From Terriglobia bacterium (GTDB lineage: Bacteria; Acidobacteriota; Terriglobia; 20CM-2-55-15): a stretch of 64,000 nucleotides of DNA. The translations under genes were made by a program, and so were the position numbers. The stretch lies in NCBI GenBank assembly GCA_965198225.1, contig CBDAOY010000003.1, positions 32,001-96,000 of the forward strand, given 5' to 3'. The first letter of the stretch is position 1. Every line of letters starts with the position of its first letter. Under the pieces are notes generated by a model. That model was not told the DNA's origin, made no database searches, and saw nothing but the letters and a program-made list of their open reading frames with translations. Of the stretch, positions 27,751 through 47,616 are shown piece by piece.

Positions 27751-27844
27751 GTGAGATCCTCGTCCTGACGACGAGCGAGCATCAGGCTCTTCCCTAAGAA
27801 ATCTTGCCGTGCCTGCCGTCCCGGGGGTAAGGGCCCGGGTCCGG

Positions 27845-28296
27845 TTGAGCCGGCAGCTCGGAATGACAATGTTCGAAGTCCTTATCGTCGTGATGATCCT
27901 CGCGACGTGTCCTTTCTAACGATCGTCGGCATGGCCGCGCTCCCGCAGCTACTGGAAACCCGCGACAATTATCGATTGACGGCCGTGGCGAGCGAGCTCA
28001 CTGGAAACATCACCAACGCCCGGATCATGTCGATAACACGGAACGTGGACGTCCGTGTGACAACGTTGAGCACGACCAGCTACGTCCTGCAACAGGCGAA
28101 CGGCAACAACTGGACCACCCAGGAGACACACACGATGGCGACGGGGTTTACGCTGGCCCCCGCAAATCCCGGGGAAACAGCGGTGTTCCACTCCAGGGGG
28201 AACGCCAGCCCCGTCACCACCTTTACGATCACGAATCCCAACAGCCTTACCCGACAGGTCGTCGTCGAGGCTTCGGGTCGAATCCATGCGCAATAG
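27845..28296 (+). pseudogene. FimT/FimU-like minor pilin (set 2), frameshifted by a 17-nt insertion
   Basis: TTG start MSRQLG|MTMFEVLIVVMILA, then a stop; body IVGMAALPQL...FHSRG...VVVEASGRI in another frame; deleting CGTGTCCTTTCTAACGA restores LAIVGMA. Confidence 0.75.
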
Positions 28297-28726
28297 CCGA
28301 GGCTTCACGCTGATCGAAACCCTGGTCGCCACCGCTATCCTGGTGTCGGGTCTGGTTGCGGTGGCCTATATGTTCAGCTATTCGGCACGGACGAACATCA
28401 CGACCCAGCAGATCACCTCGGGTACGCTGCTCCTCTACAATAAGATGGAGGAGCTGAAGGCGTCAGGGATGGCGAACCTCACCGTCGGCGGCGGGCTGAG
28501 CGGAGCGGCTCCGACGCCCAACTACTTCGACTACGTCTCGATTGGCACCAACGGCGCAATTGTTTCCGATACGGTGACGGCCTCTGCGCCATACGTGCGT
28601 GTCTGGCAGATCACGGGCGCGAACCCGAGGACGGTGACGATCGTCGTCTTCGCTCAGCGGGCCGGAATAGGAGGTCAGCGGATGGAACTGATCCGTGCGA
28701 CGACCAGCGTGACTTCGACGTTCTGA
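28286..28726 (+). CDS. Type IV minor pilin, PilV-like (set 2)
   Basis: G|FTLIE, NKMEELK, YVRVWQI. Confidence 0.82.
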   Translation: MRNSRGFTLIETLVATAILVSGLVAVAYMFSYSARTNITTQQITSGTLLLYNKMEELKASGMANLTVGGGLSGAAPTPNYFDYVSIGTNGAIVSDTVTASAPYVRVWQITGANPRTVTIVVFAQRAGIGGQRMELIRATTSVTSTF

Positions 28727-29622
28727 TGCTCCAAGGAAACGCCATCGCTAGAGCGCGGGGCTTCTCGCTCATCGAGTTGATGTTCGCGATGTCGATCACG
28801 ATGGGTCTCGGTCTGATCGTCTTCCAGATGTTCCTGCAGAACGAACGAGTGTTCCAGGACCAGAACCTGGTTCTGGAGATGCAACAGAGTACCCGCGCGG
28901 TCGCCTCGATGGTCGTCGACGAGGTGCGGAAGGCCGGCCAGGGAATCCCGGTTTACAGCGCCGGCCAGGACGCGGCCGTCGCGGAGGCCGCCCAGGCTTT
29001 CCTGGACGGGACGAACGCCGGGACGCTGCGCTTCCGGGCCGGAATCCGCAACGCCGTAACTACGACCGCCAACCCCCTGGCCTACACCCTGAACAACTCG
29101 GCGACGATCACGGTGGCCAGCGCGGCGTCGATCAACGCCATTGTCGGCGCCAATACAGGGCGGTTCGTCTACCTGTGGGGACCGACAGCGAACTCCTGGA
29201 CATGGGTGCGGGCGGAAATCACGGCCATCAACGCCGGAGCCAACCAGATCACCGCGACGACGCGACAGATGAGCGGTCAGGGCGGAACGTTCTCATCGAC
29301 TCCGACGGTATCCCTGGAGGAGGGCATTTCCTACCGCCTGTCCAACGGCGCGATCCTTCGTGGGACAACCACGACTTTCACGAACCTCACGAATCCGACG
29401 TTCACCGAAAGCACCGTCGGAAACAACTTCGCGACGCTGGCCTTCACCTACTACGACGCCAGTAACACGGCCGTCAATCCGACGAACTTGGCCTCGCGGT
29501 CGACGATTCGGCGGGTGGACCTCACGGTGGCCGGCGAAACTTCGGATACGTTATCGACCGGTTCCCGGCAATCCTACCCGGTGACGCTTTCGGTGTACCC
29601 CAGGAATGCCGGTTTGAATTGA
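28726..29622 (+). CDS. Type IV minor pilin, PilW-like (set 2)
   Basis: G|FSLIE, EVRKAG, LAFTYYD...IRRVDL...VYPRN. Confidence 0.82.
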   Translation: MLQGNAIARARGFSLIELMFAMSITMGLGLIVFQMFLQNERVFQDQNLVLEMQQSTRAVASMVVDEVRKAGQGIPVYSAGQDAAVAEAAQAFLDGTNAGTLRFRAGIRNAVTTTANPLAYTLNNSATITVASAASINAIVGANTGRFVYLWGPTANSWTWVRAEITAINAGANQITATTRQMSGQGGTFSSTPTVSLEEGISYRLSNGAILRGTTTTFTNLTNPTFTESTVGNNFATLAFTYYDASNTAVNPTNLASRSTIRRVDLTVAGETSDTLSTGSRQSYPVTLSVYPRNAGLN

Positions 29623-29981: not shown

Positions 29982-31247
29982 CTAGTACTCCCGCAGGGAT
30001 ATGGGCGAGTACGGGAAACTGCCGTTGGCGTTGGCAATCGTGGAAGTATCGTAGCGGATTCCATTGCCGCCGCCGCCGTTGAAATCGGCGATCACGTCGC
30101 CGCGTGAAGCGAGCACGGGCCCGAGCGGGTCCTGAGCCGTCTGGGTTCCGCGGCTCTTTGCGATGAGTATTCCCCCTCGGACCTCTCCATTTCCGCCACC
30201 GTTCCAGTGCAACTCTCCCTGACCGATGACCAGGATCAGACCGTTCCAGGCGAAGTTACCGCGCACCGTGAGGACTCCACGGACGAGCAGGATGCCGTAC
30301 CCGGTGCCGGGACCGAACTCGGCGTCGCCGTGCACGACCACGACACGGTAGTCATTGGCCGCCCCGATGCTTCCGATAGCCTGAGTGTTCCCAAATCCCG
30401 GTGTATACGAGTCGGTCGCCGCACCTGACAGGCTCGAAACCACCGTCTCGAGTCCCGCAGGGGTCGTCAGCAGCCCAGTCAGCTCCCCGCTGACGTCTGC
30501 GACGTCTGGAATGCCACCACCGTCACCGGTGTAGTTTGCCTGGCGGTTGTTGGGGATCGCGTTGGTTATCGTCGTGTCGTCCTGGCCCGAAATCGCGCCG
30601 ATAGCGTTCTCGTTGTTCCCGCTGCCGGCCTGATCGTTCCCGTCTATCCGGAAGAGGTTGGAGTTGGCCGCATCGAAGCATGGGGGGGGACCCGTACAAA
30701 CGCCACCATCGAGCGTCAACGCGGCAGGAATTGCGGGGAAGCTCCCACGTTTTGCATCGACCTCGATGATTCGAGTGGCGCTACCGATCCGAGCGATACT
30801 CACGAGCGTGATGACCTCGTTGGTATCTACCGTGGAGGCCGCTCCGTCCGCGACATCGTTGCGCAAGAACACGTGGTAGGTCCCGACCGTCCGACCGTCC
30901 GGGTCTACCAGAACCTGACCGGTGGCCCTCAGGTTGGCGTCTGACGGTAGAAGAGGGCGATCGTCGGTGGCCAGGAGCGTTGTCAGGTCGGCGGCCGTGG
31001 ACAGATTCGAGTCGACTCCGGCAGCCGTTACGAGGTCCGTATTGATGGCGTTCGCCGATCCCCGCAGAGCTTCTCGACCGGCGTCGATCCCGGCCTCGGC
31101 CAGAAACAGCAACTGAGTGTTGACCTTGTAGTTGTCGGCAATCTTGACGTCGACGGTCGTTGATGTCAGCAGGGCGGCGCCGACGATCGTTAGAAAGGAC
31201 AACAAGATCAGGGCCGTGATCAGGGCCATGCCTCGCTGTGGTTTCAC
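29982..31247 (-). CDS. PilX-like minor pilin (set 2), opposite strand
   Basis: QRG|MALIT (no Glu5), LFLAEAGID, Gly-rich beta C-terminus GYGILLVRGVL...GLILVIG. Confidence 0.82.
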   Translation of the reverse strand: MKPQRGMALITALILLSFLTIVGAALLTSTTVDVKIADNYKVNTQLLFLAEAGIDAGREALRGSANAINTDLVTAAGVDSNLSTAADLTTLLATDDRPLLPSDANLRATGQVLVDPDGRTVGTYHVFLRNDVADGAASTVDTNEVITLVSIARIGSATRIIEVDAKRGSFPAIPAALTLDGGVCTGPPPCFDAANSNLFRIDGNDQAGSGNNENAIGAISGQDDTTITNAIPNNRQANYTGDGGGIPDVADVSGELTGLLTTPAGLETVVSSLSGAATDSYTPGFGNTQAIGSIGAANDYRVVVVHGDAEFGPGTGYGILLVRGVLTVRGNFAWNGLILVIGQGELHWNGGGNGEVRGGILIAKSRGTQTAQDPLGPVLASRGDVIADFNGGGGNGIRYDTSTIANANGSFPYSPISLREY

Positions 31248-31499: not shown

Positions 31500-32150
31500 T
31501 CAGACGGCCTTGACGAGGCCTTCCCGGATTGCGTACCGGATCAGCTCTCCGATCGTCCGGAGTCCCAGCTTGTCCATGATGTGCTGTCGATGCGTGTGGA
31601 TCGTCTTTGGGCTGACGAACAGCGTCTTTGCGACCTCGCTGGATGACTTGCCCTCCGCGAGCAGGTAGAAGACTTCCTTCTCACGTGGAGTCAGCGCCTC
31701 CAGGCCCCGTCGCGATTGTTCCTCACCCGGCTGCAGGTTCGCGAGGACCTTCGTCACGTCGGTGGAGAAGACCGAGCCTCCCTGATGAATCGTGCGGACC
31801 GCGGTGACGAGCTCGTTGTCGAGCGAGTCCTTCAGCAGGTACCCGGCAGCTCCGGCGGTCACGGCACCCGCGATCACCTGTCGCTCGCTGTGCACGGTAA
31901 GCATCAGAACCTTCGAGCCGCCCTTGGTGGCGATCTCCCGGGTGCTTTCGATACCGTTCTGACCGGGCATCGAGATGTCCATGATCACAATATCGGGATG
32001 CAACTTCGCGGCGAGTTCGACGGCTTCGGTGCCCGACGAGGCTTCGCCGACTACTTCCATGTCCGGCTCCTCCTCCAGAATCCGTTTCAGTCCCTGCCTC
32101 AAGATGGCGTGATCGTCAGCGATTACCAGTTTTATTTTTTCGTTTGTCAT
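31500..32150 (-). CDS. NarL/LuxR-family response regulator (copy 1)
   Basis: ADDH, MDISMP, GYLLKD, LTPREKEV...SPKTIHTHRQHIMDKL. Confidence 0.93.
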   Translation of the reverse strand: MTNEKIKLVIADDHAILRQGLKRILEEEPDMEVVGEASSGTEAVELAAKLHPDIVIMDISMPGQNGIESTREIATKGGSKVLMLTVHSERQVIAGAVTAGAAGYLLKDSLDNELVTAVRTIHQGGSVFSTDVTKVLANLQPGEEQSRRGLEALTPREKEVFYLLAEGKSSSEVAKTLFVSPKTIHTHRQHIMDKLGLRTIGELIRYAIREGLVKAV

Positions 32151-33219
32151 CTTCTTCACTCGTTCCCCTGGGGATAATCATTTCGACCGTGGTCCCCTGA
32201 CCCGACGCCGTACCGACCCGGAAGGATCCGCCGACGTCATTCATCCGCTGCCGGATGGTCCAGAAGCCAGAGCTCATCAATTTCCCACTTGTATCAAAAT
32301 AGCGGCGGGGATCGAATCCCCTTCCGTTGTCCTCTACCGCGACCCGAACCTCCGAATCGGAGAAACTCACTGCGATGTCTACCGCAGACGCCCCGGAATG
32401 CCGGATTGCATTGCTGATCGCTTCCTGACAACACCGATATAGCGCCATCGTCGGCGACTCGTCAAGCGGGTACGGTTTGCCATGAGTCCTGCAGCGCACA
32501 GCCACGTCCGAGGAGCTCGATACCTGTCCGGCCAGTTCCTCCAACGCGGGGACAAAACCCAGCGTGTCGAGGATCCTCGGGTAGAGCGTGTGCGATAGAT
32601 CGCGTATCTTCGACAGCAGGCTACCGACTTCGGCGCGCGCCTCTGCCAGTTCTTCGACGGCCTTTGCCGCGCTCCCGTTGCGCTTCATCTCGCTCTCGAG
32701 CAGCTTGAGCTTCAGCTTCAACGCGGCAATCGTCTGACCGACGTCGTCGTGCAGCTCGTGAGTGATCCGGCGACGTTCTTCATCCCGTGCACGCAGCGTC
32801 TCCCGTACGAGAACTGTTTCCGACACGGTGTTCTTCTGGGCGCGACGGAGGGCCGCGTGCATCGTCCGAGCCGCCGCGATCTGGGGCGCAAGCAGTTCCA
32901 GAATCCAGCCGTGATCTTCCGACGCGGGGCTCGTCGAGACAAAGCCGAACTGTTGGTCTCCGTTGCCGAACGACACGGTCTGGGCGGCCGGTGAAGGAGC
33001 GGGCCATTCCCCGAGCTCGAATTCCCGGATCCGGCGTCCCGTGGCATACCATTCCTTCCACTCGGACGCGGATCGGTAGACCACTCGCAGCTCCTTGGCC
33101 GGCGTCAGCTTCCGGACAATCTTCATTGTTTCCGCCACGACCGACCGCATGTCCTTGGCCTGCGTGATGGTTCGTCCGAATCGGCTGATCAGGCTGACGT
33201 CTGATTTGGAGATGTCCAT
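32116..33219 (-). CDS. Soluble HisKA_3 (NarX/UhpB-type) histidine kinase (copy 1)
   Basis: EERRRITHELHDDVGQ, QEAISNAIRHS, EDNGRGF, GTTVE; no TM segment evident. Confidence 0.88.
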   Translation of the reverse strand: MDISKSDVSLISRFGRTITQAKDMRSVVAETMKIVRKLTPAKELRVVYRSASEWKEWYATGRRIREFELGEWPAPSPAAQTVSFGNGDQQFGFVSTSPASEDHGWILELLAPQIAAARTMHAALRRAQKNTVSETVLVRETLRARDEERRRITHELHDDVGQTIAALKLKLKLLESEMKRNGSAAKAVEELAEARAEVGSLLSKIRDLSHTLYPRILDTLGFVPALEELAGQVSSSSDVAVRCRTHGKPYPLDESPTMALYRCCQEAISNAIRHSGASAVDIAVSFSDSEVRVAVEDNGRGFDPRRYFDTSGKLMSSGFWTIRQRMNDVGGSFRVGTASGQGTTVEMIIPRGTSEEDDKRKNKTGNR

Positions 33220-33228
33220 TCCGTTCAA

Positions 33229-34854
33229 TTAGTGCTTCTTTCCTAAAGCGTTCAACAGATTGATGCGTCCTTTGCCCAGGAGTTTTTCAAACTCCGGGTT
33301 CAGTCCGTCGATCGAATCTGCGGTCACTATAATCGTGCGTGCGGCTGTGTTGGCCCTCCCACCCAGGGACACCAGCAGTGCGACCGACCCACTGACGAGC
33401 GGTGCACTGAAAGACGTCCCAGAAGCCCTCGCATAGAGACCTCCCGGAAACGTCGTGACAACCTCGTCCCCGGGTGCGGTTACCGAAATATTTTTTCCGA
33501 AGTTCGAGAAGTCGGCCAGCCGGTCCCCGAGATCGGTCGCCGCGACTGCGATGACGGTCGGGTAGGACGCCGGGTAGACATCGCTGGCATCTTCGGCGTT
33601 GTTTCCGGCGGACGCGACGAGAACAATGCCGTCGGACCAGGCCTTCTGCACCACCCGCCCGAAAGCTTCGGAATCCTGGCCGATCGAGAAACTCATGTTG
33701 ATGACGTCTACTTCCTGATCGATTGCCGCGTACACGGCAGTCATCGCTAGAAACAGCGTGGACTGACCCTGGGAGTCGAATGCGCGGATCGGCACCAGTT
33801 GCGCCTCGGGCGCGACCGCGTGAAGGAGCCCGGCGACCAGCGTGCCGTGTCCCAGGCGGTCGAACATGCCGTTACCGAACAGGGACATGGTCGACTGGTT
33901 TACGTGGAAGAACTGGAGCTGTTCCCAGAACAGGGACATGGTCGACTGGTCCAGGGTGAACTGCTGCATCTCCTCCCAGAACAGGGACATAGTCGACTGG
34001 TCCAGCGTGCCCGCCAGCAATTGCTCCCAGAACAGGGACATGGTCGATTGATCCAGGTTGAGCCGTTGGAGCTCTTCCCAGAACAGGGACATGGTCGACT
34101 GGTCCAGCGTACCCGCACGCAGCTGCTCCCAGAACAGGGACATGGTCGATTGGTCCAGGCCGAGCCTCAGCAATTGCTCCCAGAACAGAGACATCGTCGA
34201 CATGTCGATCGAGCTGTTCTTCAGAGCCCGTACGAGATCTTCAAAGAGAGACATCGTGGACTGATCGATGCCGCCGAACTCCGAGACCGTCCCCCCGCCC
34301 AGCAGGTTAACGCCGGGTTCCAGCCAGGTCCGAATCGCCGGATGGTCCAGATCGACGCCGGTGTCGATGAACGCGATGCGCGTCCCCGCACCCGTCGTAA
34401 TGTCACGTGTGTCGGAGGCGTGAATTACATCCAGCCCAATCTGCTCTGCGTAGTGTTCGGGTACTTCCGTTCCAAAGAAATAGGTGGGCGAACCCTCTCC
34501 GAACAGCGACATCACGCTCTGGAAGAGCGACATCGTGCTCTGGTCCAGATCGATTTCGCCGTCTGAGCCCGTTTTCTCCCGGTCCATCCGAATTATCTTG
34601 TTCTCTTCGGCGTCGATGACTGCCTTTTCCTTCTTCAGCTTTTTCTTGACGCTCTTCTTGTTCTCGACTTCGACCAGGTATATCGGTTCGTCGCCGATCT
34701 GTCCGAGAACCCTGCCCTTGTATCTTTTCAGGATCTTGTCTATCGACTTTCCGTCCTTGAGAGTCACGATCAACGTCCGGGTGCCCGCAGCTACAGCCAC
34801 GCCGGGCAGCAGCCAGCCGAGGAGGACCAGAACGAGGATGATGCGTCGATGCAT
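33229..34854 (-). CDS. Secreted S8 subtilisin-family protease with internal QSTMSLF repeats (copy 1)
   Basis: Sec signal peptide; triad FIDTG / GHGT / GTSFSAP, oxyanion SAGN; repeat array between Asp and His. Confidence 0.9.
   Translation of the reverse strand: MHRRIILVLVLLGWLLPGVAVAAGTRTLIVTLKDGKSIDKILKRYKGRVLGQIGDEPIYLVEVENKKSVKKKLKKEKAVIDAEENKIIRMDREKTGSDGEIDLDQSTMSLFQSVMSLFGEGSPTYFFGTEVPEHYAEQIGLDVIHASDTRDITTGAGTRIAFIDTGVDLDHPAIRTWLEPGVNLLGGGTVSEFGGIDQSTMSLFEDLVRALKNSSIDMSTMSLFWEQLLRLGLDQSTMSLFWEQLRAGTLDQSTMSLFWEELQRLNLDQSTMSLFWEQLLAGTLDQSTMSLFWEEMQQFTLDQSTMSLFWEQLQFFHVNQSTMSLFGNGMFDRLGHGTLVAGLLHAVAPEAQLVPIRAFDSQGQSTLFLAMTAVYAAIDQEVDVINMSFSIGQDSEAFGRVVQKAWSDGIVLVASAGNNAEDASDVYPASYPTVIAVAATDLGDRLADFSNFGKNISVTAPGDEVVTTFPGGLYARASGTSFSAPLVSGSVALLVSLGGRANTAARTIIVTADSIDGLNPEFEKLLGKGRINLLNALGKKH
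33877..34269 (-). repeat. Coding repeat array, 8 x (L/I/V)(D/N)(Q/M)STMSLF, mostly 51-bp period
   Basis: Recurring CCCAGAACAGGGACATGGTCGACTGGTCCAG on the + strand; all units in frame. Confidence 0.95.
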
Positions 34855-34869
34855 CGTTTCTAGGCCTCC

Positions 34870-35292
34870 TTATGCCTGTGCTTGCATGGAATAGGCGAGT
34901 CGCCAGTCGCGAGGATCGTTATGGGACAATCCTCGAACGACAAAACGGCGATCGTCGAGCGAGATCGTCAGATCGAAGTCCCCGTCGGGCACGGTGTGAA
35001 ACATGAACTCTCCGATGGGATTCGTCCGCGTCAACGTCTTCTGCCGGTCCGTTTCGATCACGACCGGGAGGTTGGAGACATTACCCAGGGAGGCGGTTTC
35101 CGGCATCACCTGACCTCCGACATGGAGGCACGGGCTGCCGTCCGACTGCTTGACGAGAAGGTCGAGGATGACCCCCCCGCCTTCATAGATCAGGTGCCGA
35201 TCCTCGGCAGAGGCATCCCGGATCAGGGGCACCTCTTCAAACCAGGAATCAAACAGGAGCGAGCCACGAATTTCGACAACGTCATGGTTCAT
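34870..35292 (-). CDS. Small beta-rich hypothetical protein (copy 1), resembling the C-terminal domain of CHAT-associated anti-sigma-like proteins
   Basis: RBS GAGGAGG; GSLLFDSW...RHLIYEGG..LDL...VGGQV...TNPIGEFMF; paralogue at 39280-39696. Confidence 0.75.
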   Translation of the reverse strand: MNHDVVEIRGSLLFDSWFEEVPLIRDASAEDRHLIYEGGGVILDLLVKQSDGSPCLHVGGQVMPETASLGNVSNLPVVIETDRQKTLTRTNPIGEFMFHTVPDGDFDLTISLDDRRFVVRGLSHNDPRDWRLAYSMQAQA

Positions 35293-35375
35293 AATCAGTT
35301 CCTCCTCGTCTTCGGACAAAAGTTCCGAACAAACCAACAAAAGTACGGATTCGCAACGTGGCCCGAGTGTTCTTG
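35283..35375 (-). pseudogene. Decayed 3' end of a second CHAT gene
   Basis: GTTCCTCC..TTCGGACAAAAGTTCCGAA...AAGTACGGAT...AACGTGGC aligns with 39702-39767 of the intact CHAT 3' end. Confidence 0.7.
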
Positions 35376-35704
35376 TTGGCGCCAGTGCAGCATGCTGGGG
35401 CCGGAGCCTTCGGGCCGTCGTTATAGATCGGTGTCCGTATTCTATGCTAAAGACCTAAGATGTTGGGATAGGAAACCTTCTCAGGCGAGGTGTAGTCAGG
35501 GGGGCTTGAAGAGTGTGATTTCCCCGGTGGCTGGCCCGAATCAAAGAGCCTCGCGGGCCCCTCGGCGGAGGATTGGGGAGAATGAGGTCGGATCGGAACC
35601 CGGCAGACACAGCGGATCAAGACGGATCGAGCGAACGGGTGCGACGCGCCACAACCCGCCGACCGACGCCGCGCGCGACCGACTCTTGGCGGGCGCGACC
35701 CGAC

Positions 35705-36355
35705 TCACACCGTGTTGACCAGTCCTTCGCGGATCGCGTACCGAATCAACTCGCCGATCGTCCGAATGCGAAGCTTGTCCATGATGTGCTGCCGATGCGT
35801 ATGGATCGTTTTGGCGCTCACGAACAGCGCATCGGCGACCTCGCTCGACGACTTGCCCTCGGCAAGGAGGTAAAACACTTCCTTTTCGCGTTTAGTGAGT
35901 GCTTCCAGGCCTCTGCGGCTTTCGTCCTCAACTGACCCGAGATTGGCGAGCGTTTTCGTCACTTTGGAGGAGAAGACGGACCCGCCCGAGTGAATCGTTC
36001 GGATCGCCGTGACGAGTTCGTTGTCGAGCGAATCTTTCAGCAGGTACCCGGCAGCGCCGGCGGTGACGGCGCTGGCGATGACCTGCCTTTCATCGTGGAC
36101 GGTCAGCATCAAGACTTTGGAGCCGCCTTCCGTGGCGATTTCCCGGGTGCTTTCGATCCCGTTCTGCCCGGGCATCGATATGTCCATGATGACGATATCC
36201 GGATGCAGTTCCCCGGCCAGTGCGACCGCCTCGGACCCGGTGGAAGCTTCGCCCACGACTTCCATGTCCTGTTCTTCTTCCAGTATTCGTCTCAGCCCCT
36301 GTCTCAGTATTGCGTGATCATCCGCGATCAACAGTCGTATCTTTCCGTTCGTCAT
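35705..36355 (-). CDS. NarL/LuxR-family response regulator (copy 2)
   Basis: 216 aa, same motifs as copy 1 and highly similar. Confidence 0.93.
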   Translation of the reverse strand: MTNGKIRLLIADDHAILRQGLRRILEEEQDMEVVGEASTGSEAVALAGELHPDIVIMDISMPGQNGIESTREIATEGGSKVLMLTVHDERQVIASAVTAGAAGYLLKDSLDNELVTAIRTIHSGGSVFSSKVTKTLANLGSVEDESRRGLEALTKREKEVFYLLAEGKSSSEVADALFVSAKTIHTHRQHIMDKLRIRTIGELIRYAIREGLVNTV

Positions 36356-37514
36356 CCTTTTCTCCCGTTGTTAAGGGCACAATCATTTCAACCGTGGTTC
36401 CCTGGCCCGACGCCGTGCCGAGCCGGAAAGATCCGCCGGTGTCGCTCATCCGCTGGCGGATCGTCCAGAATCCCGAGCTCATCAACTTCCCACTGGCATC
36501 GTAGAAACGACGAGGGTCGAACCCGCATCCATTGTCTTCGACCGATACTCTTACCTCCTGTTCCGCAAAATAGACGTGTATGGTCGCTCTGGAGGCGCCG
36601 GAATGCCTGATCGCGTTGCTGAGCGCCTCCTGACAACATCGGTACAATGCGAGGGTCGTGGGTTCATCCAGGGGTCTTGGGGTGCCGCGCACGCTGCAAC
36701 GGGCTCTGATGCCCGAAGGCCCCGACACCTGGTTCGCCAGTTCCTCCAGCGCGGGGACGAAACCCAGAGTGTCGAGGATCCTCGGATACAGCGTGTGAGA
36801 CAGGTTCCGAACCCTTGCCAGCAACTGGCCCACGTTCTCGCGGGCTTCGGCCAGCTCCTCGATCGTTGTGGCCGAAAAACCGTTCTGTGCGATCCGATTC
36901 TCCAACAGCTTGAGCTTCAGCTTGAGTGTCGCGATCATCTGCCCCACGTCATCGTGCAGGTCGTGGGTAATCCGTCGCCGCTCTGCGTCACGAGCGCGCA
37001 GAGTTTCACGAACCAGTTCCATCTCCGAGATTGCATGCTTCTGGGCTCGAAGCAGGGCCGCGCGGAGGGTCAGTACGGCGGAAATCTGCGGAGCCATCAA
37101 CTCCAGGACCCACGTCGTGTCCTCGGATGTCGGGCTGATCGAAACAAAACCGTATTGCTCGCTTCCGGTTTCGAATGCGACGGTCTGTGCGGCCGGCGAC
37201 GGGGACGGCCATTCCGCCTGATCGTAGGAACGGATGCTGCGTCCGAGGGCGTGCCACTCCTTCCAGGCTCCCGCCACCGCGTACACGACGCGCAGCTCGA
37301 CGGCGGGCGTCAGCTTCCGGACGATCTTCAGGGCCTCGGCGACGACCTTTCGGACGTCCTGGGTTTGCGTGATCGTCCGTCCGAACCGCCCGATCAGGCT
37401 GACGTCAGCGGGCGAAATCCCCGTCGTATCCGCAGCCTGTTTCGATTTCCTGCTCTCCCCGCCTGCAGCGAGCGGCTTAGTTATTTTTTTTCTTTTTGCC
37501 TTTGGCTTTGCCAT
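36318..37514 (-). CDS. Soluble HisKA_3 histidine kinase (copy 2); start uncertain
   Basis: AERRRITHDLHDDVGQ, QEALSNAIRHS, EDNGCGF; similarity to copy 1 starts at ISPADVSLIGRFG. Confidence 0.86.
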   Translation of the reverse strand: MAKPKAKRKKITKPLAAGGESRKSKQAADTTGISPADVSLIGRFGRTITQTQDVRKVVAEALKIVRKLTPAVELRVVYAVAGAWKEWHALGRSIRSYDQAEWPSPSPAAQTVAFETGSEQYGFVSISPTSEDTTWVLELMAPQISAVLTLRAALLRAQKHAISEMELVRETLRARDAERRRITHDLHDDVGQMIATLKLKLKLLENRIAQNGFSATTIEELAEARENVGQLLARVRNLSHTLYPRILDTLGFVPALEELANQVSGPSGIRARCSVRGTPRPLDEPTTLALYRCCQEALSNAIRHSGASRATIHVYFAEQEVRVSVEDNGCGFDPRRFYDASGKLMSSGFWTIRQRMSDTGGSFRLGTASGQGTTVEMIVPLTTGEKDDERKDTTVDRG

Positions 37515-39246
37515 TCCCGTTTCCGTTGGAATTCCCGGTACTGCCTGTGTTCGAGCCAGTTGTATCGCTGTCATCCAACGCCTCAGTCAGGTTGATGCGT
37601 CCCCAGCCCAGCTCGTTCCAGAGAGCCGGGTTCAACGATGACGATTCGATGGAGTCCGCCGTGTGTAGGATAGTGTGTCTGGCGGATATATTGTTCTTAC
37701 CCACGGACATGAGCAACGCCAGCCCGGCGCTCACCATCGGCGCACTGAACGATGTGCCGGACGCTCTGGCATACAGGCCTCCAGGGAACGTGGTTGCCAC
37801 GCCAACCCCCGGAGCCAGGACGTCGACGAAACCGTAGTTCGAGAACGACGCGAGGTGGTCTTCGAAATCCGTCGAGGCGACCGCGATCACCTTGTTGTGT
37901 TGCGCCGGATAAATGTCGTTGTTTATGTAGGCGGCGTCGTTTCCGATCGATGCGACCAGTGCGACTCCTTGCGACCATGCATCGTTCAGTGCCCGGTTCA
38001 TGGCTTTGGATTCGGTACCGATCGAAAAACTCATGTTGATGACGTCGACGTCCAGGGCGAGGGCGGCATAGACGGCGGCGACGGCGAAGAACAGCGTCGA
38101 CCGACCCTGGGAGTCGAATGCGCGGATCGGCACCAGTTGGGCTTCGGGCGCGACCGCGTGCAGGAGCCCGGCGACCAGCGTGCCGTGTCCCAGGCGGTCG
38201 AACATGCCGTTACCGAACAGGGACATCGTCGACTGGTTCACGTAGAAGAACTCGAGCTGTTCCCAGAACAGGGACATGGTCGACTGGTCCAGGGTGAACT
38301 GCTGCATCTCTTCCCAGAACAGGGACATGACCGACTGGTCCACGTCGAGCCTCTGCAGGACTTCCCAGAAAAGCGACATGGTCGACTGGTCCAGAGTACC
38401 TGCGAACAGTTGCTCCCAGAACAGGGACATGGTCGATTGATCCAGGTTGAGTCTCTGGAGCTCTTCCCAGAACAGGGACATGGTCGACTGGTCCAGGGCG
38501 CCAGCCGCGAGCCGCTCCCAGAACAGCGACATGACGGACTGATCCAGGCCAGCCCTCAGCAATTGATCCCAGAACAGCGACATCGTCGACATGTCGATCG
38601 AGCTGTTCTTCAGGGCCCGCACGAGATCTTCAAAGAGCGACATCGTAGACTGGTCGATGCTGCCGTACTCCGAGGCCGACCCCCCACCCAGCAGGTTGAC
38701 GCCGGGCTCCAGCCAGGTCCGAATCGCCGGATGGTCCAGATCGACGCCGGTGTCGATGAACGCGATGCGCGTCCCCGCACCCGTCGTAATGTCACGCGTG
38801 TCGGACGCGTGAATCACATCCAGCGCAATCTGCTCGGCGTAGTGTTCAGGCACTTCCGTCCCGAAGAAATCGGTAGGGGATCCTTCTCCGAATAACGACA
38901 TCACGCTCTGGAACAGCGACATCGTGCTCTGATCCAGATCGAGAAACCCACCGGGTATCGATGGAGGCTTGCTCTCCAGCGATACGAGGCCGTTCGGTTC
39001 CACATCGGTGACCCACTTGTCGCCGGCCAGGTCCTCGATCGGGTCTTCGTCCGTCCCGTCGGTAAGAACCAGGAAAACCGGCTCCTGGCCCATCTGTCCG
39101 AGAACCTGGAGATCGTATTTCGCCTTGACCTGGTTGATCTTGTTTGCGCTCTTGAGTGTTACGATCAGCTCCAGCCCGCCGGCTGAGGCTGCGGTCGGGA
39201 GCAGGAGCCCCGCGATCAGTAAGGTGAGAATTATGCATCTTCGCAT
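37477..39246 (-). CDS. Secreted S8 subtilisin-family protease with QSTMSLF repeats and G/N/K-rich tail (copy 2)
   Basis: Signal peptide; FIDTG / GHGT / GTSFSAP, SIGN; tail GNSNGNGNGKAKGKKKKNN. Confidence 0.9.
   Translation of the reverse strand: MRRCIILTLLIAGLLLPTAASAGGLELIVTLKSANKINQVKAKYDLQVLGQMGQEPVFLVLTDGTDEDPIEDLAGDKWVTDVEPNGLVSLESKPPSIPGGFLDLDQSTMSLFQSVMSLFGEGSPTDFFGTEVPEHYAEQIALDVIHASDTRDITTGAGTRIAFIDTGVDLDHPAIRTWLEPGVNLLGGGSASEYGSIDQSTMSLFEDLVRALKNSSIDMSTMSLFWDQLLRAGLDQSVMSLFWERLAAGALDQSTMSLFWEELQRLNLDQSTMSLFWEQLFAGTLDQSTMSLFWEVLQRLDVDQSVMSLFWEEMQQFTLDQSTMSLFWEQLEFFYVNQSTMSLFGNGMFDRLGHGTLVAGLLHAVAPEAQLVPIRAFDSQGRSTLFFAVAAVYAALALDVDVINMSFSIGTESKAMNRALNDAWSQGVALVASIGNDAAYINNDIYPAQHNKVIAVASTDFEDHLASFSNYGFVDVLAPGVGVATTFPGGLYARASGTSFSAPMVSAGLALLMSVGKNNISARHTILHTADSIESSSLNPALWNELGWGRINLTEALDDSDTTGSNTGSTGNSNGNGNGKAKGKKKKNN
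38215..38658 (-). repeat. Coding repeat array, 9 x (D/N)(Q/M)S(T/V)MSLF, mostly 51-bp period
   Basis: Same unit as 33877-34269 with one extra copy. Confidence 0.95.
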
Positions 39247-39279: not shown

Positions 39280-39696
39280 TTAACAGTCAGTCGAACACGC
39301 TAATTGCCAGTTTCGGGGATCGCTCCGCGAGAGCCCTCGCACCACAAACCGCCGACCCTCCAGCAGGATCGTGAGATCGAAGTCCACGTTCGAGACCGAA
39401 TGAAACATGAATTCTCCGATCGGATTCGTCCGCGTCGCCGTCTTCTTCCTTCGAGTCTCGATCACGACCGGGAGGTTTGCGACGTCCCCCATGGAATCCG
39501 TGTCGGGCAGCACCTGGCCCCCGACGTGAAGGCAGGGGTCTCCGTTCGTGCGTTTGACCAGAAGATCGAGGATGACTCCGCCGCCCTCGTAGATCAGATG
39601 CCGGTCCTCGGGGGACGGGTTCCGGACCCGGGGCGTTTCTTCGAACCAGGAATCGAACAAAAGTGAGCCCCGAATTTCGACAACATCATGTTGCAT
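39280..39696 (-). CDS. Small beta-rich hypothetical protein (copy 2), translationally coupled to CHAT
   Basis: MQHDVVEIRGSLLFDSW; start overlaps the CHAT stop. Confidence 0.75.
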   Translation of the reverse strand: MQHDVVEIRGSLLFDSWFEETPRVRNPSPEDRHLIYEGGGVILDLLVKRTNGDPCLHVGGQVLPDTDSMGDVANLPVVIETRRKKTATRTNPIGEFMFHSVSNVDFDLTILLEGRRFVVRGLSRSDPRNWQLACSTDC

Positions 39697-41708
39697 AACG
39701 AGTTCCTCCGTGTTTTCGGACGAAAGTTCCGAATCCGCCCCAGAAGTACGGATGCGGAAACGTGGCGCGGATCGTCGCCGCGGCGCCATGAGTGGCCGCA
39801 GGCGCGTTCGTGCCGTCGTAAAGTTGATAGAACTGTCTGGAAAAAGATTGCGCCGCCTCATCCCGAATTGCCCAGAACGCCGAGACGATCGTGTGCGCAC
39901 CGGACAGGTAGAAAGCTCTCATCAGCCCCTGCCACTCGTCGCCGGCCGAGATCACCCGGCGTGCGGTATGACAGCCGGTGACGACCAGGGTGCCCGCCCG
40001 GAACTGCATGTCCATCAGTTCCCGGCTCGTCAGGCGACCCTCACTGGTTTCCAGCCAGGAAAGCGCCCCCTGGACCGTGTCGATGCCCGCATGTCCTGCG
40101 ACGTGGACCAACTCCCGATATTGCTTCAAGTGGTGGCCGAGCTCATCAGGAGACGGATTGATGAGCACGACCGCGTCATCGAAGTGTGCCGCGGACTGTT
40201 CCACTTCCGTGACGATGTCTTCCTTTTTGTCCGTGGAAAAAGCGACGAACAGCGGCGGTTCCGCTGGTTCCTCCTCCCGGACCGGGGATGCATACAGCGT
40301 CGCGCTCGGACTGTAGCCGATGGAATGATCCTCGCATAAGAACGATGCGCCATCGTGGAGGGCGTGGAATGGAACGCCGTGCAGGAATCCATGAGGCACG
40401 ACGGTGACGTGCTTGCCCACTTTGTCACGAACGGGCTCGACCAGAGCCTGGTAGAGCTGCTGCAGATGTTCCCTCGCCGTCCGCTCCAGGTGATGAATGA
40501 CCTTACCCAGCCGCTCGAACTTGACACTGCAGCTTGCGATGTGCCGCTCGAGATGGCTCGATTCGGACCGGATCGAGGGGCCCACGCCGGGTCGATGGAC
40601 GCACTCGGTGGTTCCTCGATTGACGATGAAGATGTACAGATCCTTTCCGGAGATGAAGTACTCGAGGATGGTTTCGTCGAGGTCCAGACGTTGGGCCAAC
40701 CCCTCGGATAAGACGCCCTCATCGGCGGGAGCCAGCCGCTCCACCAGGACCCGGGAGCGAGCCCGCTCCGAAAGCCGGAATGCATCCGGAACCGAAGTGG
40801 ACGCGGCGGTCGGCATCATTTGCGTGTAAACGTTCTCTCGATCGGTCATGAAGGCCATCTTGAGGTCGTCCGAGCCGATCCGATGCCAGAGGGAATCCAG
40901 CATGGATTCGGCTTTCCCCAGGAATGGAACACTCCGCGTCTCATCGATCTCGGCAAGCGACGCCCCTAATTCGTAGTAGGCGTGGAATTGCATCCATTCC
41001 GATCGACTCTCCTCTGCAAGCTTCGCGGCGGATTCGAAAGAGTCGATGGCGCACGCTCGATCCCCGGTTTTTCGTTGGATTCGCCCGATGACGATGTCGG
41101 CCATAGCTAACCGGTCGGGCAGGGAACGCTCTTCCAGCAGCGCCCGGGCCGCCGTCGCCTCTCGCAACGCCTGAGCCTCCCCCCGCTCGCCCCTGAACAG
41201 GGCCGCTTGCACCTTTGAAACGGCCGTCCAGACGCTGTTGCCTTCAGACTCGAAGCGTTTGACGGCTTCTCCCAGCAGCCGATCGACTTCTTCGTTCTGG
41301 CCCATCCGAAGCGATGCGACCGCTTCGAAGAGCAACGTCTTGCCGACTTCGTAGTTCAGCCCGATCTTCATACCCAGGGCTCGGGCTCGGCGTGCCGATC
41401 GGATCGCTTCCGAAAGATCGCCGATCTCGAGCAGCATCTCGGCCTCATCGAGCCAGCACAGGCTAACGTGACGGTCGTCGGCCTCGCGCTCGAACTCCTG
41501 CTTCAAGTCTGACATGCCGCGCAGAGCTTGACCGCTGTCTCCTCTCAGGTAATCCAGGTAGGTGCGGTTGTACCGGCTCTGCAGCTCGATCGCGTGCATG
41601 CCGAGTTCGGCAGCGAGCTCGAGGGCCCTTTCATAGCGCCCGTCGGCCTGATCGAATCGATGCAGAGCGGTGAGGACGACTCCTGAGTTCAGGGAGGACG
41701 CGAGGAGG
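39686..41708 (-). CDS. TPR + CHAT (caspase/HetF-like cysteine protease), 5'-truncated
   Basis: TPR-like helices, SERARSR, VPHGFLHGVPFHAL, His motif HVAGHAG, Cys motif VTGCHT, SAFWAIRD, HPYFWGGF; TPR-like reading continues upstream of ATG 41599 to about 41708, then breaks. Confidence 0.82.
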
Positions 41709-41765
41709 CCCGGCCGCCACCCACAGGACGCCAGAACCAGAAGAGGGTTGTTCCGTACGACTCAT
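41709..41765 (-). pseudogene. Displaced, inverted N-terminus of the EamA gene (MSRTEQPSSGSGVLWVAAG)
   Basis: ATG 41765 just downstream of CATAAT; re-inverting about 41709-41911 joins VLWVAAG in frame to ATLWGTD. Confidence 0.7.
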
Positions 41766-41844
41766 TGGTAGGGATTATGGCGCATTGGAACTGGGAGGGC
41801 GGGAAAGAAGTAGGCAATGGGCCGTGGTCGGAAGGCAGGCGCGT

Positions 41845-41910
41845 GTAGGTGCGGTCTATGACCGCACATTGTTCGAACCGAAACAACGTGCGCTCACAGA
41901 GCGCATCTAC
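41845..41910. repeat. GTAG REP doublet
   Basis: GTAGGTGCGGTCTATGACCGCAC ... GTGCGCTCACAGAGCGCATCTAC. Confidence 0.85.
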
Positions 41911-44904: not shown

Positions 44905-45495
44905 ATGGCGCCGGCTGACGAGACGCAACTTATTCAAAAAGCTCAAGATGGGGATGTCGACGCGTTCTGCGCCCTGGTGGCACAGCACCAGCGCTCCATG
45001 TATCTGCTGGCCTACCGGTACGACGCCGAGGACCTGGCCCAGGAGGTTTTCCTGAACGCTCATCGGGCAATCGACCGGTTTCAGGGGAGGAGTTCTTTTC
45101 GCACCTGGCTGTCGCGGATTCTGGTGAATGCATTCCTGAATCACCGGAGGAAGAATGATCCGCTCTCGGAGAAACGACGGTCCGACAGCGATCCGGAAGC
45201 CAGTCCCCCGGCTCCGGGGTTCCAGACCGCGAACGCGTCGGCCCGCACGACCGAGAACCGGCTACTCGTCCAGGAAGTGTTGCGTTTTCTGGACACCGTT
45301 CCGGAAAGGCAGCGACTGATGTTCCTGCTCAAGCACCAGGAGGGTCAGACCTGCGAGGAGATCGCCAAGCTGATGGGCACCTCTGTCGGCACCGTGAAGA
45401 AGACGCTGTTCCGTGTCGTGGGGAAGCTCAGATCCGAGTTCGCTCGGAAGGAAGAACAACCATGCATCGCTGCGAAAGTTTCAGAACAAGCGTAA
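44905..45495 (+). CDS. ECF RNA polymerase sigma factor
   Basis: DAEDLAQEVF, FQGRSSFRTWL, EEIAKLMGTSVGTVK. Confidence 0.88.
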   Translation: MAPADETQLIQKAQDGDVDAFCALVAQHQRSMYLLAYRYDAEDLAQEVFLNAHRAIDRFQGRSSFRTWLSRILVNAFLNHRRKNDPLSEKRRSDSDPEASPPAPGFQTANASARTTENRLLVQEVLRFLDTVPERQRLMFLLKHQEGQTCEEIAKLMGTSVGTVKKTLFRVVGKLRSEFARKEEQPCIAAKVSEQA

Positions 45496-46202: not shown

Positions 46203-46263
46203 AGTGAAGAAGGAAGAAAAGCTCCAAATGCCATTACCCGTTGAGTATACGAGGAAAGAATCA

Positions 46264-47616
46264 ATGCAACGTCATCCATTAACATTTCGGATAATCGGAC
46301 TGGTTGTGCTGTCCGTGGTTGCGCTGCCGCCCGCCGAGGCCCAGGTTGTGTCCCCAGCGCTCGTGTCGCAGTTCGCCGCCGAGCTGGATGAGGCGCGGGA
46401 CATCTTCAACGAAGGTCTGCGAATGTTCGAACAGGGACGCTGGGAAGGGGCCGAGCAGAATTTCCGCGAAGTGATGCGTCGTTTCCCGGACAACGCGATC
46501 GCCGACCGTTCATCCTACTATCACATCCGGACCCTGGTCCGGTTGAACCGGGCGACACAGGCGCTGGAAGAGATCGGTGCGTTCCCGACGCGGTTCCCGG
46601 ATTCCCGCTGGCTGAGCGATGTTCACGAGGAGCGGCTCCGTCTGACGAACAATCTCCCCAGGGTGATGGCATTCCAGGCACCCGCGGCTCCGCCGGCCCC
46701 ACCGGCTCCCCCCGCAGCCGAGCTACCTCCGGTTCCACCCGCTCCCCCGGCTCCGCCGCGTCCTTTTGAGTTCGCGGACCTGGAAGAGGTCATCGAACAG
46801 TCCATGGAAGGAATGGAGGAGAGGATGATGGAAGCTCGCGAGGGCTTCCGGGTGGCCGAGAGCGTCCTGCGCGGTATGCAGGGTGTGGTTGCCGGCGGCG
46901 AGGAAGTCGATCCCGAAACCAGCCTGCAGCAGGAAATCCTTCGATCCCTGTTTCGGAACGACCCGGACCGCGCGCTGGAGGTTGCGGCCGATCGCCTGGA
47001 AGCGAACCCGAGCGATCCTGTCGTGATGGCCAACTTCCACATGATTGCGCGGGAGGATTCCGACGCATCGCTCGAGATGCTTGCGAACCTGGCGAAGAAC
47101 TCGCCCGATGACCGTGTCCGCAAGGAAGCCATCTTCTGGATCAGCCGATGGGACGGAGACGAGGATCGCGTCGTCGAGGTGCTGCTCGACATCCTGCCCA
47201 CGATTGACGACGACGAGACTGCATCGTCGGTGGCCTTCTCCCTGAGCCGGGTTGACAGCGAAAGCGCGGTCCAGGCGCTGCTGACGATTGCCAACGACGC
47301 CGTTCGCAACGTCGAACTCCGTAAGAACGCGATCTTCTACATCGGGCGAACAGATGCAGGTAATCAGGTCGACGCTTTGAGACAGATCTACTCGAATGCC
47401 TCCGACAGCGAGGAGATTCGCAAACAGGTGGCTTTTGCTCTCAGCCGGCTGGATGAAGACGACGAAGGCGGAGCCGGCGCCATCGCGCTGATGGGAGAGA
47501 TCGCCAGGAACGATCCCAGCATCGAGGTCAAGAAGCAGGCCGTCTTCTGGCTCGGCCGGATGGACAGTCCCGAAGCTCTGCAGATTCTGGAAGATCTTCT
47601 GCGCGGTCCGCAGTGA
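46264..47616 (+). CDS. Exported TPR/BamD-like plus HEAT-repeat protein with Pro/Ala linker
   Basis: Signal peptide, FPDSRW, PAAPPAPP, repeated VRKEAIFWI / VKKQAVFWLG. Confidence 0.75.
   Translation: MQRHPLTFRIIGLVVLSVVALPPAEAQVVSPALVSQFAAELDEARDIFNEGLRMFEQGRWEGAEQNFREVMRRFPDNAIADRSSYYHIRTLVRLNRATQALEEIGAFPTRFPDSRWLSDVHEERLRLTNNLPRVMAFQAPAAPPAPPAPPAAELPPVPPAPPAPPRPFEFADLEEVIEQSMEGMEERMMEAREGFRVAESVLRGMQGVVAGGEEVDPETSLQQEILRSLFRNDPDRALEVAADRLEANPSDPVVMANFHMIAREDSDASLEMLANLAKNSPDDRVRKEAIFWISRWDGDEDRVVEVLLDILPTIDDDETASSVAFSLSRVDSESAVQALLTIANDAVRNVELRKNAIFYIGRTDAGNQVDALRQIYSNASDSEEIRKQVAFALSRLDEDDEGGAGAIALMGEIARNDPSIEVKKQAVFWLGRMDSPEALQILEDLLRGPQ

Follow-up and report, generated by a model that had tools for sequence, protein, structure and literature searches.

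Tandem copies of a candidate self-recognition motif inside the catalytic domain of two acidobacterial subtilases

The window analysed (the whole stretch of 64,000 nt from a Terriglobia bacterium) contained two neighbouring paralogous genes for predicted secreted subtilases, in each of which a short peptide was repeated many times within the catalytic domain, raising the question of what such an array does for the protease that carries it. The explanation that we favour, at slightly less than an even chance, is that the subtilase itself recognises or cleaves the repeated core, which would form an internal, repetitive pseudo-substrate or activation loop.

Two subtilases with intact catalytic residues

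Both genes lay on the minus strand. Copy 1 (nt 33229-34854) encoded a protein of 541 aa with a signal-peptide-like N-terminus (hydrophobicity peak of 2.67 at residue 5), a fervidolysin-type N-terminal prodomain and a catalytic domain, while copy 2 (nt 37477-39246; 589 aa) ended in a C-terminal tail rich in N, G, S and K. Scores against Peptidase_S8 (Pfam PF00082) were 129.8 bits for copy 1 and 123 bits for copy 2, the gathering cut-off being 21.8. The catalytic triad and the oxyanion Asn were intact and in the S8 order in both copies (D164/H336/N418/S481 in copy 1 and D165/H354/N436/S499 in copy 2), their columns were invariant in an alignment of 41 sequences, and His64 of subtilisin BPN' aligned with H336 of copy 1. 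The prodomain of copy 1 matched PF22148 (Fervidolysin_NPro-like) with 25 bits versus a cut-off of 21, and its residues 25-89 were modelled by AlphaFold as a beta-alpha-beta-beta-alpha-beta-beta unit with pLDDT 86-91; no Pfam match at E 0.01 was found for the prodomain of copy 2, which aligned with copy 1 over the full length. Membership in the PatA/PatG family (NCBIfam TIGR03895; 73.3 and 51.8 bits versus a cut-off of 421.05) and in the type VII secretion mycosins (NCBIfam TIGR03921; 144.8 and 125.3 bits versus 278.75) was rejected. In PADLOC, the sole match was the generic "subtilase" model (E 2.1e-18), and the CHAT protein, small protein and kinase encoded nearby (see below) matched no model; no known defence system was indicated.

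Organization of the arrays and of the junction cores

The array of copy 1 (nt 33877-34269, minus strand; aa 196-326) consisted of 8 S[TV]MSLF cores, from IDQSTMSLF to VNQSTMSLF, mostly in 17-aa units, and that of copy 2 (nt 38215-38658, minus strand; aa 197-344) of 9 such cores. Both were situated in the interval between the catalytic Asp and His, the last residue of the copy 1 array being 9 residues ahead of His336. These numbers, obtained from core counts and Tandem Repeats Finder, agree with an earlier sequence-only reading of the locus, which had described 8 and 9 units, mostly of 17 aa. Tandem Repeats Finder placed 51-nt arrays at nt 33877-34201 and 38215-38548, with higher-order periods of 102 and 153 nt. 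Back-to-back cores lacking a linker, WSVMSLFWSVMSLF, were also present.

Two further cores, LDQSTMSLF-QSVMSLF, were found past the prodomain in both copies, as had been reported before, at nt 34501-34548 (aa 103-118) in copy 1 and nt 38890-38937 (aa 104-119) in copy 2, both on the minus strand; a 21-nt duplication was detected at nt 34501-34543. They occupied the linker that joins the prodomain to the catalytic domain, a site at which self-processing is expected; in the AlphaFold model of copy 1 they fell, with pLDDT 34-45, in the segment connecting the final strand of the prodomain to the first strand of the catalytic domain.

A six-frame motif search of the whole 6.4-Mb genome yielded 22 matches, of which 21 fell in the two subtilase genes and 1 stood isolated elsewhere, none being in any other gene. 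The arrays are therefore not a product of chance. DNA contigs from three studies covered copy 1 but broke within the array. A read joint from nt 34157 to 34522 is likely a repeat artefact, since one of its sides comprised no more than 21 letters and the joint linked two cores. Copy 1 was also matched by two contigs of 221 and 232 nt from RNA libraries, a match that does not amount to proof of transcription.

Uniform cores, conserved linkers and the predicted fold

The layout of a constant core with variable linkers, noted in the earlier reading, is real. Among 78 pairs compared, core positions 2, 4 and 6-10 were nonsynonymous in none and synonymous in up to 39 pairs, whereas linker positions 12 and 14-17 were nonsynonymous in 51 to 66. 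Purifying selection at the protein level maintains the core, although gene conversion could account in part for its uniformity. In the relatives also, all copies within one protein shared a single core, for example QSVMSLF in 9 of 9, QSTMSLF in 11 of 11, WSVMSLF in 7-9 and QSLIWLF in 7 of 7 copies. Recognition by one site would be expected to give this combination of uniform cores and differing linkers.

The description of the linkers as variable holds within one protein and fails among orthologues, in which they were conserved position by position: the first unit was always xDxVRxxK..., and the last units were always WEEMQxFTL and WEQLQF.YV. The linkers are therefore not free spacers. Together with the 34-aa higher-order period, this suggests constraints beyond those on a simple spacer, which has to be set against an array serving recognition alone. 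Such constraints would be met if the array were a folded or conditionally folded helical repeat, retained uncut in the mature enzyme and acting beside the active site as a lid or binding platform, with one helix per 17-aa unit, possibly paired in 34-aa hairpins, and a role in substrate selection or surface attachment. We consider this alternative unlikely, yet it accounts for several observations. AlphaFold drew 8 helices of 7-15 residues in the copy 1 array, one per repeat and each beginning just past the Asp; W, E, L and LD recurred at set positions of the position-conserved linkers; and the 102-nt (34-aa) period matched better than the 51-nt period (83% versus 77%). Each unit was modelled as a 13-residue helix, and this helix would have to unwind for its unit to enter the substrate cleft, which weighs against a pseudo-substrate.

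However, pLDDT was low throughout the array (27-52) and likewise in the insert of a short-insert relative (38-47). Structure prediction, which had been proposed as a check, thus gave no confident fold for the array, and, with such values, the stable structural domain that would speak against its cleavage was not seen. The helical hydrophobic moment of the 8 units (0.18-0.46) was no higher than that of shuffled sequences, which matched it in 8-65% of trials, with 0 of 8 units below a shuffle fraction of 0.05, and the idea of an amphipathic helix was dropped. Furthermore, back-to-back cores, copy numbers ranging from 3 to 11 among close relatives, and pure 9-aa arrays in other relatives (LNQSTVSLL about 12 times, LDQSSATF 6 times) point to the core as the repeat unit, and 9-aa arrays cannot form the same helix-turn unit. 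Finally, packing of helices requires neither identical cores within a protein nor cores at the pro/mature junction.

Distribution among relatives and the match between junction and insert

Hundreds of relatives, mainly from soil and sponge-associated Acidobacteriota, carried 1-12 short repeats at the same site of the subtilase; the array is a family trait and not a local oddity. The repeat motif was specific to each lineage. The most conserved feature, present in all lineages, was two hydrophobic residues followed by Asp/Asn and Gln (ILDQ, LLNQ, TLDQ, TADQ).

A comparison of the insert with the pro/mature junction covered 120 listed relatives, of which 111 were parsed and 82 had a 6-mer repeated in the insert. 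In 67 of these 82, all from the near subfamily, the insert 6-mer matched the protein's own junction with at least 5 of 6 residues identical; the control, for which junctions were taken from proteins that had another motif, gave 58 of 410. This correspondence between junction and insert, lineage by lineage, supports self-recognition. It was not universal: among 16 more distant loci, the motif ahead of the catalytic domain was missing in 12 and present in 4 (L001, L003, L021 and L022), although it was also present in L002. A further point against the favoured explanation is that no clear covariation was seen between the S1-pocket residues and the last hydrophobic residue of the core.

From these data, we infer self-recognition, in which the enzyme would bind or cut its own motif. 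The sequence at the pro/mature junction may have been copied many times into a surface loop just ahead of the catalytic His, so that in the exported zymogen the tethered cores would occupy, or compete for, the substrate cleft. Upon activation, the enzyme would cut at the cores, probably past the hydrophobic pair (...MSLF|), to give a nicked two-chain enzyme and to shed 17-residue pieces together with a 7-residue piece from the junction. A small residue followed by two hydrophobic residues and an acidic or polar one (MSLF|W-E, SILD, SLLD) fits the P4-P1 preferences of subtilisins.

Comparison with known subtilases

Control of subtilases by an N-terminal prodomain is textbook knowledge; in pro-subtilisins BPN' and E, the C-terminal residues of the prodomain act as a product inhibitor by remaining in the substrate cleft, and intracellular subtilisin proteases have a short N-terminal extension that must be removed to free an otherwise blocked active site. 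As in the autoprocessing of pro-subtilisin (PDB entries such as 1spb and 3whi), the proteins described here combine an S8 domain and an N-terminal prodomain with a tethered segment at the junction that would match the specificity of the enzyme, but their junction motif is tandemly duplicated and occurs in 8-9 additional copies (1-12 in relatives) in a loop of the catalytic domain. In the intracellular subtilisin proteases (PDB 2x8j, 2wv7 and 2xrm), the S8 site is likewise closed by a tethered segment of the same chain, for which the array is only a candidate here; unlike their single N-terminal segment, it is repetitive, internal and lineage-specific.

No occurrence of the core motif strings was found in literature text, and internal arrays of this kind were not encountered in the literature on subtilase autoprocessing, tandem repeats, insertions or Acidobacteria, although the supplements of the ECF papers might list these subtilases; none was found in that on internal propeptides and pseudosubstrates either. 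Subtilases are among the best-studied enzymes, and, should the favoured explanation be true, an array of an enzyme's own junction motif within its catalytic domain would add a new mode of regulation to the subtilase fold. Because the protein itself contains the predicted substrate sequence, specificity, activation and possible peptide signals are directly testable.

Gene neighbourhood and the TPR-CHAT cassette

The subtilase belonged to a conserved cassette that comprised a TPR-CHAT protease, a small beta-sandwich protein and the subtilase, usually with an ECF sigma factor in the related cassettes, as in locus L029, where genes for an ECF sigma, a TPR-CHAT protease, S8, a 234-aa protein and an HD_5 protein stand in one row. 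The subtilase of the window, like that of L001, was instead followed by a soluble HisKA_3 kinase and a NarL-type regulator (Response_reg+GerE). Histidine kinase 1 (nt 32116-33228; HisKA_3 and HATPase_c), probably soluble since it had no hydrophobic segment, and the NarL/LuxR-type response regulator 1 (nt 31500-32159), assigned by Pfam, had the paralogues kinase 2 (nt 36318-37574) and regulator 2 (nt 35705-36355), all four on the minus strand. An ECF sigma factor as a member of this cassette was rejected, the nearest sigma gene (nt 44905-45495) being on the other strand past two unrelated genes. The TPR-CHAT protease (nt 39686-41599, minus strand; 637 aa) scored 120.8 bits against PF12770 (CHAT). 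It retained the His/Cys dyad, invariant in 21 sequences, and its gene was shortened at the 5' end, the first ~180 residues of the relatives being missing. No signal peptide was found on the CHAT proteins, either in the window or in those ORFs of relatives with N-termini read. According to the favoured explanation, the subtilase would be the exported member of the cassette, wired here to a kinase and a regulator and not to an ECF sigma; the array would offer a first concrete way into the secreted component of this widespread, putative TPR-CHAT/subtilase signalling cassette.

This context also suits a more elaborate scheme, which we regard as improbable, in which the subtilase would serve as a precursor that contains signalling peptides in multiple copies and processes itself. 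After export, the array and the junction would be self-cut into 7- and 17-residue peptides ending in ...MSLF and taken up by cells; the imported peptides would be sensed by the TPR of the cytoplasmic TPR-CHAT protein, and CHAT would cut the small anti-sigma-derived protein, thereby switching the kinase/regulator pair or, in relatives, the ECF sigma. Multi-core precursors cut by S8 proteases are known in cyanobactin PatE, cut by PatA/PatG, and yeast alpha-factor, cut by Kex2, and in RRNPP systems TPR receptors bind imported peptides cut by subtilisins, a precedent for signalling. The likeness to PatE and alpha-factor, drawn in the sequence-only reading, stands for the tandem identical cores under purifying selection, the spacers and a subtilase as processing enzyme. 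It fails in that the cores form part of the protease, the PatA/PatG score was far below its cut-off, and no known peptide-modifying (RiPP-type) or dedicated export gene was found among the Pfam-scanned neighbours, which encoded the kinase, regulator and CHAT proteins, PilX_N, an EamA transporter, UbiD, a sigma factor and a HEAT-repeat protein; nor was an oligopeptide importer seen among them. In 70 parsed loci, repeats and CHAT occurred together in 17, repeats alone in 5, CHAT alone in 9 and neither in 39, an association confounded by phylogeny. This co-occurrence, the invariant dyad and the two regulators that always accompany the genes speak for signalling; the nine CHAT-linked subtilases without exact repeats and the shortened CHAT gene of the window speak against it. 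Strain-specific cores (pherotypes), which had been envisaged, did not appear: orthologues at 61-77% identity retained QST/VMSLF, and the core differed only between deeper lineages, so that no pherotype-like diversification was seen. If signalling were nevertheless true, the system would amount to a counterpart, Gram-negative and embedded in a protease, of the peptide/TPR-receptor quorum sensing of Firmicutes, with lineage-specific cores as signal dialects.

Very improbable, in our judgement, is a third possibility, that the motif is the target of another protease, such as the adjoining caspase-like CHAT cutting past Asp/Asn (..LD|Q..), with the array as substrate or decoy. Some clan CD peptidases do cut after Asp or Asn, and the hydrophobic pair, Asp/Asn and Gln common to all lineages would provide a site; for the caspase-like cleavage after Asp suggested earlier, the sole support is the CHAT gene next to the subtilase. 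Against it, the subtilase has a signal-peptide-like N-terminus and CHAT has no signal peptide, so that the two should occupy different compartments. Moreover, none of the characterised CHAT relatives is known to cut after Asp. Separase, one of these relatives, is described as cutting after a residue other than Asp (PMC11506125). A complex prediction for TPR-CHAT with residues 186-336 of copy 1 gave 0.00 twice versus a mark of 0.32, a value obtained without controls and with the fold of the partner uncertain, which carries no weight for or against binding.

The cassette resembles the ECF54 neighbourhood, described as ECF sigma, CHAT, carboxypeptidase-like and subtilase genes (PMC8999054; Casas-Pastor et al. 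2021, PMC7826278), in that it groups genes for TPR-CHAT, a small beta-sandwich protein and a subtilase. The differences are that ECF54 is described there for Actinobacteria, whereas the present loci are mostly from Acidobacteriota, and that the kinase and regulator replace the sigma factor in the window and L001; the descriptions of ECF54 in these two sources make no mention of subtilase repeats. A TPR-CHAT protease is also tied to the control of a transcription regulator in Craspase (Cas7-11 with TPR-CHAT Csx29, substrate Csx30 and sigma factor RpoE) and in DdvA/DdvS of Myxococcus xanthus, as described in PMC11506125 (see also PMC10028731). The CHAT protein of the window matched the Csx29 model weakly (E 2.8e-13; 49.6 bits versus a cut-off of 300), and there were no CRISPR genes. 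In contrast to Craspase and DdvA, the CHAT and the anti-sigma-like protein are two separate proteins here, the CHAT lacks a membrane segment, and a repeat-bearing secreted subtilase belongs to the set.

The small cytoplasmic protein 1 (nt 34870-35340; longest ORF 156 aa) and its paralogue, small protein 2 (nt 39280-39900; longest ORF 206 aa, the true start being probably internal), both on the minus strand, had no Pfam match. The L001 orthologue matched CarboxypepD_reg weakly (E 0.0048; 17.7 bits, below the cut-off of 32.3). Anti-sigma-like proteins of ~230 aa in related cassettes have a C-terminal domain to which small protein 1 was related, aligning with residues 86-190 of the 234-aa protein of L029 (BLASTP E 1e-5), and the CHAT protein of the window matched 42 ORFs in 80 loci.

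Tandem subtilase cassettes

One gene cassette was present in two tandem copies on the minus strand, each beginning with a small protein gene (34870–35340 and 39280–39900) that was followed by genes for an S8 subtilase, a HisKA_3/HATPase_c histidine kinase (32116–33228 and 36318–37574) and a Response_reg+GerE regulator (31500–32159 and 35705–36355). A single TPR-CHAT protease gene (39686–41599, minus strand) preceded the upstream copy. The subtilases of copy 1 (33229–34854, 541 aa) and copy 2 (37477–39246, 589 aa) greatly exceeded the Pfam threshold for Peptidase_S8 and retained the catalytic and oxyanion residues (D164, H336, N418 and S481 in copy 1; D165, H354, N436 and S499 in copy 2). Both had signal-peptide-like N-termini, with hydrophobicity peaks of 2.67 (residue 5) and 2.20 (residue 4), and no such hydrophobic segment was found in the kinases, small proteins or CHAT protein of the window. 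Both the cassette and this family of enzymes are already known.

Copy 2 ended in an N/G/S/K-rich low-complexity tail (...SNGNGNGKAKGKKKKNN; window 37477–37580) absent from copy 1, and several relatives of 565–595 aa were likewise longer. DNA identity between the two copies was 87.7% in the stretch that takes in the array, Asp region and prodomain/catalytic-domain junction (33868–34553 versus 38256–38942), but only about 74% in the kinase and regulator genes and 78% in the small ORF; blastn gave no match between the 3′ parts of the subtilase genes. This pattern suggests that the repeat-bearing half has undergone gene conversion or is more strongly constrained.

Repeat arrays and constancy of the core

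Tandem Repeats Finder located 51-nt arrays at 33877–34201 and 38215–38548, with higher-order periods of 102 and 153 nt, and a 21-nt duplication at 34501–34543. The copy 1 protein possessed eight S[TV]MSLF cores (aa 196–326) between Asp164 and His336 and two further cores back-to-back at aa 103–118; the corresponding numbers in copy 2 were nine (aa 197–344) and two (aa 104–119). In a six-frame scan of the 6.4-Mb genome the core occurred 22 times, 21 of them in the two subtilase genes and one isolated. The counts, units and coordinates of the repeats in a previous sequence-only reading were thus correct.

Thirteen regular 17-aa units from both genes were compared in 78 pairs. At core positions 2, 4 and 6–10 (D, S, M, S, L, F and W), none of the 78 pairs was nonsynonymous and the synonymous differences numbered 30, 12, 0, 39, 12, 0 and 0, respectively; at linker positions 12 and 14–17, 51 to 66 pairs were nonsynonymous. 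Since the core differences were synonymous only, the constancy of the core is held at the protein level and does not merely reflect recent duplication. The linkers were conserved position by position among orthologues and hence are not free: the first unit was invariably of the form xDxVRxxK..., and the last two were WEEMQxFTL and WEQLQF.YV (in this listing the relatives P0024 and P0035 were parsed wrongly, and the search pattern did not pick up P0019). The closest relatives had 3 to 11 cores, via duplication or loss of middle units.

Lineage-specific motifs in the array and at the junction

A word-indexed search yielded 609 relatives at E ≤ 1e-3 among 7999 scored candidates, 120 of which were listed, and an exhaustive representative search yielded 429 clusters at E ≤ 1e-30. 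Short repeats were observed in the Asp–His loop of nearly all of the 120 listed relatives (of 609), with a motif that depended on lineage: QSTMSLF, QSVMSLF, WSVMSLF, QSLIWLF, QDMMSLLD, QQMASLLD, QNMDLLLD, DAMTSLLD, TAETLFLLD or YTAYLLD. Loci of named genomes, mainly Acidobacteriota, added QSTTSILD, QETTPILD, QDTTPILD, QSTMAILD, QSTAAVVD, LNQSTVSLL (about 12 copies) and LDQSSATF (6 copies). Shared by all motifs were two hydrophobic residues, Asp/Asn, Gln, and then x-Thr/Met; the 17-aa unit of the window looks like an ancestral unit of 8–9 aa that has been extended by a WEQLxxxxLD spacer.

In the near subfamily, the motif of the protein's own lineage also stood 45–60 residues ahead of the catalytic Asp. 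Among the 120 listed proteins 111 were parsed, and 82 of these had a 6-mer repeated in the insert, which matched the protein's own junction region at 5 or more of 6 positions in 67 of the 82 (exactly in 44), as against 58 of 410 comparisons with the junctions of different-motif proteins at the same criterion. Within one protein, the cores were all alike and the linkers unlike. The junction copy was usually missing in more distant subfamilies, being present in 4 of 16 inspected loci, plus locus L002. Searches of article texts turned up no published account of a repetitive, lineage-specific copy of the junction motif within the catalytic domain.

Five loci of other subtilase lineages showed tandem repeats at the junction and none in the Asp–His loop (L031:2410–3762, L045:7497–9284, L054:7368–9080, L057:7368–9254 and L080:2428–4026); the units were TADQFIF (5 times) in L031, a Chthonomonadaceae locus, and AWAGG-like in four Deinococcota loci, and a CHAT gene was also found at L031 and L057. 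In P0001–P0120 and the loci, the segment ahead of GTSFSAP (catalytic Ser) covaried with motif class, a covariation confounded by phylogeny, with (R/K/H)YAAAW in ..LLD/..ILD lineages and L(Y/W)A(R/K)AS in ..SLF lineages; it may reflect a fit between prime-side subsites and the acidic residue that follows the core.

Predicted structure and reading of the array

AlphaFold2 modelled copy 1 from a 41-row alignment with a mean pLDDT of 71.4. The model was confident in the prodomain and in the catalytic core; pLDDT was 34–45 in the junction linker (92–117) and 27–52 in the array (197–331). The short-insert relative P0076 (61-row alignment; mean 82.7) showed the same pattern, with 38–47 in the insert and about 50 at the junction. 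Comparison with solved structures matched copy 1 residues 328–532 to BPN′ residues 56–260, so that His336 corresponds to His64 and the array lies in the loop immediately ahead of His. The modelled array had one helix of 7–15 residues per unit, beginning directly after Asp, and the hydrophobic moment of the copy 1 array units was not notable. These predicted helices and the position-specific linkers speak for an array that stays intact as a helical lid, which we regard as unlikely. Several findings nevertheless favour a short linear motif that a single site recognises over a repeat that serves for packing: the array is without a confident predicted fold; each protein has cores of one kind only, which change together between lineages and stand also at the pro/mature linker; and any copy number is tolerated, with or without a spacer.

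The prodomain C-terminus of subtilisins must fit the cleft, and the cleft of the subtilase itself is the most economical candidate for recognising the motif. We therefore read the array as a pseudo-substrate or activation loop within the enzyme, self-cut on maturation; we favour this reading tentatively and hold it to be quite possible, if short of probable. The sequence-only reading is thus supported in part: the architecture that it described and the tie to the self-processing site were upheld. The maturing subtilase would cut its own array, and peptides would be shed as a necessary consequence. That these peptides in turn signal, for instance to the TPR-CHAT protein, is improbable, and the suggestion that the cores represent pherotypes was not sustained.

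The CHAT gene and its surroundings

Across the 80 related loci, the window CHAT protein matched 42 ORFs; these were typically of about 960 aa, directly upstream of the subtilase on the same strand and without a signal peptide. The caspase-like element of the sequence-only reading did not hold up, and cleavage of the motif after Asp by the CHAT enzyme is very improbable because of compartment. Repeat-bearing subtilases tended to occur together with CHAT: among 70 parsed loci, 17 had repeats and CHAT, 5 repeats only, 9 CHAT only and 39 neither, an association that is confounded by phylogeny.

The usual gene order in relatives was ECF sigma factor (Sigma70_r2/r4), TPR-CHAT, a soluble protein of about 230 aa with an HxxxxCxxC N-terminus, S8 and an HD_5 protein. 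The small ORFs of the window aligned to the C-terminal domain of the 230-aa protein (E 1e-5) and lacked its N-terminal part, and the kinase/regulator wiring was common only to L001 among the related loci. The HD_5 (HD-GYP-like) gene lay directly downstream of the subtilase in ECF-type relatives (L029:9107–9841, with equivalents in L023 and L032), a hint that the output of the cassette may be a cyclic nucleotide. The review PMC8999054 names carboxypeptidase, subtilase and CHAT proteins as conserved neighbours of ECF54 sigma factors, a group that the classification paper PMC7826278 assigns to Actinobacteria, without a known anti-sigma factor; Myxococcus DdvA is presented in PMC11506125 as a membrane anti-sigma factor whose TPR-CHAT domain lies in the periplasm.

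Similarity to the TPR-CHAT proteins of relatives extended upstream past the first start codon (41599) by some 138 nt, where an in-frame stop cut it off (window 41540–41860, minus strand), and the first 180 or so residues of the relatives' protein had no counterpart in the window. The gene is 5′-shortened and may be impaired, although its His/Cys dyad is intact. An ECF-type sigma factor gene (Sigma70_r2/r4_2; 44905–45495, plus strand) lay on the opposite strand, 3.3 kb away from the CHAT gene, with EamA and UbiD genes in between. Next to it came an overlapping ORF and then a gene for a HEAT/TPR repeat protein (46204–47616, plus strand); this group looks like a separate module.

Five consecutive ORFs (188–906 aa) at window 22972–29622, beside a PilX_N protein gene (29982–31247), had no Pfam match at E 1e-4. 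Two RNA-library contigs labelled as sponge metagenome matched copy 1 at 33697–33917 and 34617–34848, with 3 and 1 differences, and DNA contigs from three other studies covered the copy 1 gene at 99% or more; these matches are hints, not proof, that the organism is associated with sponges and that the gene may be transcribed.
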